The position numbers and the translations under genes were made by a program. A stretch of 64,000 nucleotides of DNA, from assembly GCF_024700885.2 (NCBI RefSeq), contig NZ_CP117016.1, one strand, 5' to 3'. The notes beneath the pieces were generated by a model. The model saw nothing but the letters and a program-made list of their open reading frames with translations. It did no database searches and was not told where the DNA came from. This DNA is from Escherichia coli (lineage in GTDB: Bacteria; Pseudomonadota; Gammaproteobacteria; Enterobacterales; Enterobacteriaceae). Position 1 is the stretch's first letter. Each line of letters begins with the position of its first letter. Positions 8,262 through 9,422 of the stretch are shown here, one piece after another.

Positions 8262-9422
8262 TTAATCAAGTTTTTGCTGATGATACCGATACAGCATCAT
8301 TCTAAGTTTTAGCAAGGTTGTACTATCATTATCTGCAGAGCAAAAATTATACCAGCCTTCAGTATATTTATTTAAAGTATCAAAGTAATAATCCTTCAAT
8401 GGATCATCCCTATCTGAGTGGAGACAAGAAAACATCTTCTGAAGAATATAATTTAATTCACCTGTAGGAAGCCTCGAAATAATCACATCACAAGTAGTTG
8501 TTAAATCTTCAATATTCATTTTCTGAAGATTATTTCTAATCTCTAAAACGATCGGATAGAGTTTACTCAAAAACTCATTTACTTCATCTTGAAGATGCTT
8601 CTCTTTAACACAACCATCAAACAAATGAATTAACTCTTCCAATTGCATTCGGTAATAATCATTATTACCTCGTATAGCGACTTCTGAAAGAAGCAGCCTC
8701 AACTCATCATAAATGTTATCGGTGGATGATATAACTTGCGCGGACAAAACATCGTAATGGTTGTTACGAATTACCACTATAGAGTCCATTAGTTTTTCTA
8801 GATATTTATACCTACTTTCAACATATGAGATAAGCTCGTTAAATTTAATACCAAAAATAACATCATCCACACCGGGTTTGTTATTATAAAGACTTATAGT
8901 AAAATCATTATTATTAAGTGCATAAAAATGAGGCCAACTCGCAAACAATCTCTCCCCGTGGTTATTTTTAAGATTCGTAGGGTGAGCACCAAAAATAGCG
9001 CGAATACTCTTAAAATAAGAGTCATCATCCTCATGCGAAAGATAATGTATTTTATCCTTAAAAATATCAACAGAGCCTTTAAAGGGCCATTTCATAAAAT
9101 TATTGTCACTTTCAATAATACGATGGAGTTGCCGCACCGCTTCCACTATTATATCGATTGATGATATAATAGTATAAATCTGCATAGCTTTAATATCAAT
9201 GTCTTCAGATATTTCAGGGATGTTCATAAGATAGCGTACAGAAACAGTAATCCAATCCATGCATGAACAAATAGGGCTGAACTGATTTTTACCATTTCTG
9301 TTTATGAAGTAACTATAAACAAAATCTCTTTCATTAACTACATCGCGAAAATCCGTTATTAAAGTATCATTAATAGTTATACCAAAATTTGTCTTAGTTA
9401 TCTTCATGGTGACCATTTTCAC
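8262..9422 (-). CDS. Hypothetical 386-aa protein, AT-rich orphan inserted between D and ogr; candidate phage-defence or abortive-infection cargo
   Basis: Long uninterrupted ORF in markedly AT-rich DNA, opposite strand to D and ogr; no family recognised; R-x5-H at residues ~141-147. Confidence 0.6.
   Translation of the reverse strand: MKMVTMKITKTNFGITINDTLITDFRDVVNERDFVYSYFINRNGKNQFSPICSCMDWITVSVRYLMNIPEISEDIDIKAMQIYTIISSIDIIVEAVRQLHRIIESDNNFMKWPFKGSVDIFKDKIHYLSHEDDDSYFKSIRAIFGAHPTNLKNNHGERLFASWPHFYALNNNDFTISLYNNKPGVDDVIFGIKFNELISYVESRYKYLEKLMDSIVVIRNNHYDVLSAQVISSTDNIYDELRLLLSEVAIRGNNDYYRMQLEELIHLFDGCVKEKHLQDEVNEFLSKLYPIVLEIRNNLQKMNIEDLTTTCDVIISRLPTGELNYILQKMFSCLHSDRDDPLKDYYFDTLNKYTEGWYNFCSADNDSTTLLKLRMMLYRYHQQKLD

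Follow-up and report, generated by a model that had tools for sequence, protein, structure and literature searches.

The HEPN superfamily consists of metal-independent RNases that leave 2′,3′-cyclic phosphate ends and have a dimeric composite active site. Here we describe a cargo gene (8262..9422, minus strand) that lies between gpD and ogr in a P2-like prophage, on a 64,000-nucleotide stretch of Escherichia coli DNA (RefSeq assembly GCF_024700885.2, contig NZ_CP117016.1), referred to throughout as the window. The closest functional precedent for its product is HepS, a single HEPN protein from the Gifsy-1 prophage of Salmonella that senses a siphovirus tail-tip protein and cleaves tRNA (PMC13043305). 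Like this ‘HEPN solo’ abortive-infection protein, the cargo protein is a single protein without a partner, occupies an accessory position in a prophage and carries an Rx4-6H motif. HepS has homologues from Bacillaceae to Enterobacteriaceae, is inactive by default and unites sensor and effector in one protein, and we propose it as a functional model for the cargo protein. The two are, however, not detectably related.

Other described systems resemble the cargo gene in part. PrrC, RloC and other HEPN genes are found in type I restriction-modification (R-M) operons (PMC3710099), and some members of the cargo-protein family likewise lie between hsdS and hsdR on the same strand. Unlike PrrC and RloC, the cargo protein lacks an ABC-ATPase domain, its sequence gives no profile match to the HEPN domain of those two proteins, and most family members, the E. 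coli one included, stand alone and far from R-M systems. The single-gene HEPN abortive-infection (Abi) proteins AbiD/AbiF, AbiU2, AbiV and ApeA are also helical, a few hundred residues long and without a partner, with an R...H motif, and several Abi proteins are R-M-linked. Their Pfam and PADLOC models nevertheless match none of about 80 family members, and in the family the residue after the arginine is not polar. As for location, the hotspots of P2-like phages named in the literature are old/tin, between gpA and the portal gene, and Z/fun, after the tail-fibre genes (Rousset 2022, PMC9122126; Vassallo 2022, PMC9519451). These too hold non-essential, AT-rich and variable cargo between core genes, with many alternative occupants across strains. 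In contrast, the slot described here lies at gpD-ogr, at the right end of the prophage next to attR, and is not named in PMC9122126 or PMC9519451, though either may include it. Prophage hotspots with single-gene defences are an already known kind, and many unannotated candidates exist.

Our best overall explanation, held at slightly less than even confidence, is that the cargo gene encodes a stand-alone antiphage abortive-infection protein with a HEPN-like RNase site, carried as cargo in a prophage slot. The parts of this explanation differ in strength. A role in defence, judged from genomic context, is moderately probable; whether the protein is an enzyme is evenly balanced; and HEPN-like RNase chemistry, argued by analogy, is somewhat unlikely. 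The gene is a strong candidate, not a demonstrated system.

The cargo gene is real, foreign and under purifying selection. It has 386 codons, from a GTG at 9422 to a stop codon at 8262-8264. Public annotations start at M3 (ATG 9416; 384 residues, WP_231362158.1) or at M6 (ATG 9407; 381 residues), and the N-termini of homologues start around M6. The chance probability of an open frame of this length at the composition of the gene is ~5e-14, and comparison with the homologue from phage phi458, 72% identical, gives a ratio of non-synonymous to synonymous substitution rates (dN/dS) of 0.12; the gene is therefore real and constrained. Its GC content is 0.321 and that of its third codon positions (GC3) 0.289, whereas gpD has values of 0.537 and 0.576; overall GC is 0.49 in ogr and 0.502 across the window. 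The GC profile runs at 0.31-0.34 over 8200-9400 and at ~0.53 on either side. Every source names the protein hypothetical.

The D-ogr interval is a true cargo slot in this lineage, and the cargo gene is accessory. The slot is bordered on the left by gpD (late control D / tail protein; 6902..8131, plus strand) and on the right by ogr (Ogr/Delta zinc-finger late-gene activator; 9624..9884, plus strand), which lie 1492 nt apart in the window and 42 nt apart in the empty allele. A megablast search of the D-cargo-ogr region against 5426 complete E. coli genomes found the slot backbone in 1448 of them and the full region with the cargo gene in only 19, unrelated strains whose copies of the gene are 99-100% identical. 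The commonest state of the slot is empty, with 42 nt from the gpD stop to the ogr start (720 genomes). Elsewhere the slot holds a YecA/SEC-C family protein (80 genomes), a 500-residue PIN-domain protein (59), a 221-residue hypothetical protein of the EPEC (enteropathogenic E. coli) E2348/69 type (54), a DUF3800 protein (36), a 465-residue hypothetical protein (17) or a DUF2971 protein (16). Thus 281 of the 1001 classified genomes (~28%) carry one of seven counted cargoes, and at least one further type occurs in phage records, outside these counts, so that there are at least eight unrelated cargoes in total. In every allele seen the cargo is a single gene, on either strand, and the inserts have a GC content of 0.32-0.43 compared with 0.52-0.54 for the backbone. 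In relatives whose records are phage genomes, P88 and others, D directly adjoins ogr, which marks the cargo as something the phage can do without. DUF2971 is the only alternative cargo with a PADLOC match (candidate PDC-S31).

A sequence-only reading of the window had described a low-GC open reading frame on the opposite strand between D and ogr genes some 1.5 kb apart, and the measured frame, spacing and composition bear this out. It had inferred a D-ogr slot and proposed comparing the interval across P2-like prophages; the comparison reveals just such variable cargo, with this gene in 19 genomes, 720 empty sites and at least eight different single genes overall. It had also given the gene an upstream region of its own at 9423-9623. 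This proved correct for about 9423-9553, an AT-rich 5′ region on the minus strand that is specific to this cargo and is the presumed site of the gene's own promoter, but not for 9554-9623, which is an arm found in all occupied alleles.

This right arm (CAGTTGGAGTCTGAGC..ACAACTTAGAATAGC; 9554..9623, plus strand) is non-coding and leads into the ribosome-binding region of ogr. It contains a candidate sigma-70-type ogr promoter, TTGGAG (9565-9570) and TAAAAT (9588-9593) separated by 17 nt, which was read from the sequence by eye. Occupied alleles in general have a right arm of ~70 nt before ogr and a left arm of ~95 nt after the gpD stop, with a hairpin at its end. In the window the 3′ flank of the cargo gene (8132..8261) starts right after the gpD stop codon; the first ~41 nt of the left arm are gone, and the hairpin GGCACAGAGC-N20-GCTCTGTGCC (8147-8186) is kept as the remnant of the arm common to occupied alleles. 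A consensus scan of the cargo flanks found no intrinsic terminator. The arms are not found next to family members in phi458 or Serratia, and are therefore part of the slot rather than of the cargo. On the simplest reading, cargo may be swapped through recombination between the conserved arms. We also considered the arms and cargo together as a mobile cassette, and rejected this because the arms do not accompany the gene in those two settings.

Two further features of the slot ends can be recorded. The sequence CAACTTAGA occurs at both ends of occupied slots (window 8132-8186 and 9554-9623; L010-L016) and once only in the empty site. The ends are also imperfect inverted repeats, TGTATTAGCTCAGAC ... 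GTCTGAGCCAGTACA (TG...CA), an arrangement that resembles an old transposon-like insertion with target duplication. We found no literature that names the gpD-ogr slot, describes the cargo-protein family or mentions the accession, and we count the documented slot with its conserved arms as new.

At 90% identity the family of the cargo protein falls into 125 clusters, and at 50% identity it has 327 representatives. It reaches from Proteobacteria to Firmicutes, with members in Enterobacterales, Vibrionaceae, Moritella, Shewanella, Psychrobacter, Marinomonas, Sphaerochaeta, Clostridia, Bacilli, Tenericutes and Kiritimatiellae. Conservation was assessed on 70 diverse sequences, down to 24% identity. 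Residues W57, D133, H147 and Y325 are invariant in this set, and R141 (69 R, 1 K), D90 (69 D, 1 E), R251, S53, D56, S162 and W163 are nearly so; in a closer set of 49 homologues R141 and H147 are both invariant. Three signature motifs recur, CS[CA]MDW (52-57), [IL]R[AS]xF[GA][AT]H[PS] (140-148) and [FY]ASW[PS] (160-164).

The AlphaFold2 (AF2) model of the protein is confident, with a predicted local distance difference test score (pLDDT) of 91. It has an N-terminal conserved core (residues ~17-215; 8778..9374, minus strand) with helices at 20-39, 48-66, 75-103 and 133-146 and three short strands (158-192), and this core holds nearly all of the invariant residues (S53, D56, W57, D90, D133, R141, H147, S162 and W163). 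Many distant matches align only over residues 17 to 215 or 310. The second motif extends over residues 140-151 as [IL]-R-[AS]-x-F-[GA]-[AT]-H-[PS]-[VTI]-[ND]-L (8970..9005, minus strand); in the cargo protein it falls in SIRAIFGAHP, residues 139-148, with the R141 codon at 9002-9000 and the H147 codon at 8984-8982. The C-terminal helical region (residues 216-386; 8265..8777, minus strand) is more variable, with R251, E294, Q300, Y325 and K329 conserved, and we infer that it is a regulatory or sensing part. In three fusion proteins of 623-626 residues (P0067, P0077 and P0082; L009 1316-3196) the family domain is preceded by an N-terminal domain of ~240 residues (MKNQYFGDINDYKKYGLLR..., with a DPDNG motif), which is also a very abundant stand-alone protein with more than 1600 clusters and no name or Pfam family.

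How does this protein compare with a HEPN domain? In HEPN domains helix-2 carries a conserved acidic residue, often within Ex3[KR], and inserts are common between helices 2 and 3 (PMC3710099). In the cargo protein R141-x5-H147 fits the Rx4-6H motif, with histidine in 70/70 sequences and arginine in all but the one that has lysine. By DSSP assignment on the AF2 model, helix 133-146 ends within the motif, and H147 is the first residue of the loop. A 29-residue loop (104-132) separates this helix from helix 75-103, which bears D90 and E94 (57/70); the residue four positions after E94 is Q98, not the K/R of Ex3[KR]. The near-invariance of R141 and H147 and the position of the motif at a helix end, as in the published description, strengthen the HEPN hint; so, less clearly, does the acidic residue in the preceding long helix.

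All-against-all clustering of the open reading frames in 85 loci revealed no conserved partner gene, the largest co-occurring cluster being present in 8 loci, and across 75 loci no partner recurs as a conserved one; it follows that the family gene acts alone or with varying partners. Type I R-M systems are among its neighbours. The order in Paraclostridium is hsdM-hsdS-X-hsdR, where X is the co-oriented family gene, with gaps of 11 and 19 nt. Elsewhere the gene lies immediately upstream of hsdR (locus L084) or downstream of complete type I R-M systems (loci L039 and L078), and a 626-residue fusion protein is encoded just upstream of hsdM. By analogy with PrrC, the hsdS-X-hsdR placement suggests an R-M-linked role in a second line of defence. 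The R-M operon of L084 also contains, directly upstream of the family gene, a 190-residue open reading frame (9201-9773) with the sequence RREFLAH, a canonical-looking Rx4H, and no PADLOC match.

Other defence genes also occur beside the family. The gene adjoins Gabija (GajA and GajB) in Marinomonas and, by Pfam domains, a Gabija-like pair of ATPase-TOPRIM and UvrD helicase genes in Moritella. In three Clostridia metagenome-assembled genomes it lies among type III R-M, HEC-05/SspE-like, LmuA/Avs1a-like and Avs2-like genes, and at other loci downstream of PDC-S02, AriA/mad3-like or PtuA-like genes; AAA_13 and Mrr genes are near it in Klebsiella. This association between the family and defence genes is suggestive, as a pattern of gene neighbourhoods not quantified against background. 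Mobile elements are represented by the variable region of an SXT/R391-type integrative and conjugative element (ICE), with a copy common to Edwardsiella, Pasteurella, Vibrio, Proteus and Shewanella, by phage phi458, where the gene lies beside pin and tail-fibre genes, and by Leclercia, where it is found at a prophage edge next to a serine recombinase. In Pantoea and Citrobacter the gene is just downstream of two open reading frame families, c25 and c26. The c26 member in the Leclercia locus is a 738-residue protein with a weak match to a tape-measure family (TMP_3), and on this account the Pantoea and Citrobacter loci are probably prophage tail regions.

Two of these neighbourhoods recall the E. 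coli slot itself. A DUF2971 gene lies beside the family gene in Serratia (L094 8001-10173), together with AlpA and Ogr_Delta genes in what we read as a P4-like element, and a SEC-C-domain protein is encoded beside it in Vibrio cyclitrophicus (L096 8001-11588). The recurrence of slot cargo types beside the family gene suggests a common pool of cassettes moving between hotspots.

A different pairing is seen in two Clostridia lineages (L071-L073 8961-11041; L081 9137-11041), where a reverse transcriptase (RT) gene that matches PADLOC RT_VI (E 7e-63) ends 0-29 nt upstream of the family gene. Retron effectors sit in this same position downstream of the RT, and the arrangement may be a retron-like pair whose effector is non-canonical. 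The family differs from retron effectors in that the PADLOC models, retron components included, match none of the members searched, and no RT lies near the E. coli gene. In the AT-rich DNA upstream of the RT-linked members, Rfam gave no match to an msr/msd RNA, and no conserved or convincing structure was seen. We count this pairing and the PrrC-like embedding in R-M operons as new for the family.

Put together, the preferred explanation would run as follows. The cargo gene would have been dropped into the recombination-prone gpD-ogr slot of a P2-like prophage and would be expressed independently from the opposite strand, giving a single protein that both senses and acts. Its N-terminal helical core would form an enzymatic pocket from D133, R141, H147, D90, S53/D56/W57 and S162/W163, and this pocket would be a HEPN-like metal-independent RNase site that is off by default. 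The variable C-terminal helical half may keep the pocket inactive until a phage-derived cue releases it, whereupon cleavage of tRNA or mRNA would halt translation and block the superinfecting phage.

A number of results weigh against this explanation. At position 142 alanine prevails (61 of the 70 sequences), with S in 7, T in 1 and G in 1, and the polar N/D/H typical of HEPN never occurs; neither these members nor the query has a HEPN-clan Pfam match at E<=0.1, and a four-helix up-down bundle superposable on solved HEPN domains was not recovered, with no HEPN structure retrieved. Because of these three points we do not file the cargo protein as a HEPN member, so that the HEPN hint offered by the sequence-only reading holds for the near-invariant motif at a helix end and fails at the level of profile and fold. 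More broadly, only chance-level matches were obtained with Pfam (query, one fusion protein and the 70 diverse members) and with NCBIfam and PHROGs, and the query has no match in PADLOC-DB 2.0.0, PDC candidates included, at E<=1. No promoter was recognised in a sigma-70 consensus scan of 9423-9623, the other slot cargoes are mostly not established defence genes, and IMG/VR holds only 6 copies of the family. Finally, when 10 neighbours from 8 gammaproteobacterial loci were sampled blind and searched with PADLOC, there were 6 blanks, 2 weak partial matches and 1 locus with a complete system; as this sample mostly lacked matches, the neighbourhood evidence is anecdotal rather than a computed enrichment.

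Further searches gave the same picture of a protein without recognised kin. Ten distant members and 2 fusions had no PADLOC match save one at chance level (E 0.02), and profile searches of PDB sequences with two family alignments returned only haemagglutinin coiled-coil noise. Foldseek found no match to the model in the PDB and only ‘Uncharacterized protein’ entries in AFDB50, and hhalign detected no relationship between the family profile and six alternative slot cargoes or eight recurrent neighbours. The family is thus unseen by all current libraries and has a confidently predicted fold without a solved relative, and we count it as new. The sequence-only reading had recognised no family and no partner gene, and both statements stand. 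Its proposal of defence cargo has fared unevenly: foreign cargo in a slot is what the genomes reveal, and the defence role draws its backing from genomic context.

The lack of a solved relative and of a HEPN profile match, and the residue after the arginine, atypical for HEPN, would also suit an antiphage protein with other chemistry. The D133/H147/R141/S162/Y325 pocket of a new enzyme fold could act on DNA, on nucleotides (e.g. NAD+/ATP depletion) or on protein, or the protein could be a non-catalytic sensor or decoy. All of the defence-context evidence applies equally here, and the family has more invariant polar and aromatic residues (W57, Y325, S53, D56, S162, W163 and R251) than a minimal HEPN site needs. 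We nevertheless think this reading rather unlikely: the R-x5-H at a helix end, the upstream acidic residue and the inter-helix insert all fit the HEPN description, and no motif of NADase, nuclease (PD-(D/E)xK, HNH), phospholipase D (PLD), Fic or other toxin families was detected.

Alternatively, the gene could be a prophage ‘moron’ unconnected with host defence: its product could regulate, counter defence or restriction systems, or bring the prophage or host some other benefit by lysogenic conversion. Anti-defence genes and other cargo are likewise carried in hotspots (iLund4u preprint), few cargoes of this slot count as established defence genes, other hotspots of the same prophage hold ParM, partition genes and a transferase, and most of the blind-sampled neighbours are unannotated. 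Against this, the same-strand insertion between hsdS and hsdR with gaps of 11-19 nt, and the company of Gabija, Lamassu/Avs-like, retron and R-M genes that the family keeps on chromosomes not of phage origin, are easier to square with a host-side immune gene than with anti-restriction, and the cargo protein has no match to a signal peptide or DNA-binding domain. We regard such a role as unlikely. A functionless passenger, selfish or decaying DNA hitch-hiking in the slot, is very improbable. The gene is admittedly rare (19/5426 genomes), AT-rich, possibly silenced and without a recognisable promoter, but decay is hard to reconcile with an intact frame, the low dN/dS, a confident AF2 model, residues that stay invariant down to 24% identity across phyla and near-identical copies in 19 unrelated strains.

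The prophage that carries the slot has its right end in the window, is inserted between btuC and ihfA and matches phage P88 and Xuanwuvirus records; it is apparently complete and intact. The window chromosome is 100% identical to that of E. coli strain E-1246. RefSeq annotates gpD in that strain as a shortened 262-residue ‘VgrG/Pvc8 family’ coding sequence plus an opposite-strand pseudogene fragment, whereas gpD in the window is an uninterrupted open reading frame (6902-8131) and other genomes annotate ~366 residues; judged from the sequence, the shortened form looks like an annotation artefact. On the far side of the slot, 3′ of ogr, a Hok/Gef-family toxin gene (10075-10215, plus strand) lies just inside the prophage end beside ihfA, and it is present in every slot allele examined. 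The same prophage carries further cargo in a small ‘transferase’ gene (557-1102, minus strand), immediately behind the tail-fibre assembly gene and in opposite orientation to it, at a position equivalent to the Z/fun hotspot of P2. At its gpA-portal hotspot (L092 10686-13074), which falls outside the window, there is no recognised defence system, and the occupants are two pseudogenes and the genes for a ParM-like and a partition/stability protein; two further genes, both hypothetical, separate the integrase gene from btuC.

Beyond this prophage, thrS and the end of a second, lambdoid prophage flank a lone gene for a 581-residue ‘P-loop NTPase fold protein’ (18433-20175, plus strand), possibly another accessory or defence-type gene. 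The lambdoid prophage occupies ~20650-64000, with a J tail-tip gene, lom, iss, emrE, ybcK and bet/exo/gam, and has its integrase at the window end.

Taking the family and the slot together, we tentatively propose, with less confidence than for the preferred explanation of the gene itself, that the cargo gene is the first E. coli representative of a so far undescribed family of single-protein immune effectors that spans phyla. The family would combine an invariant D/R/H/W/Y pocket with a fold for which no solved relative exists, and would be a new catalytic fold or else a HEPN RNase that has diverged very far. Such effectors would stand alone in prophages, ICEs and satellites, be wired into type I R-M systems like PrrC and be paired with retron-type RTs. 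The proposal also extends to the slot: in gpD-ogr, P2-like phages would have a third, mechanistically organised place for cargo, whose conserved non-coding arms supply a terminator-like hairpin and the promoter of ogr.

If the cargo gene does protect against phages, it would add a new protein family, possibly a new fold or a very divergent branch of HEPN, to the single-gene immune systems of bacteria. The use of one family alone in prophages, within type I R-M operons, beside retron RTs and fused to an abundant domain without a name is a natural experiment in how effectors are coupled to sensors. The gpD-ogr junction, for its part, is a populated cargo slot in which most cargoes are uncharacterised, and further candidates could be mined there.

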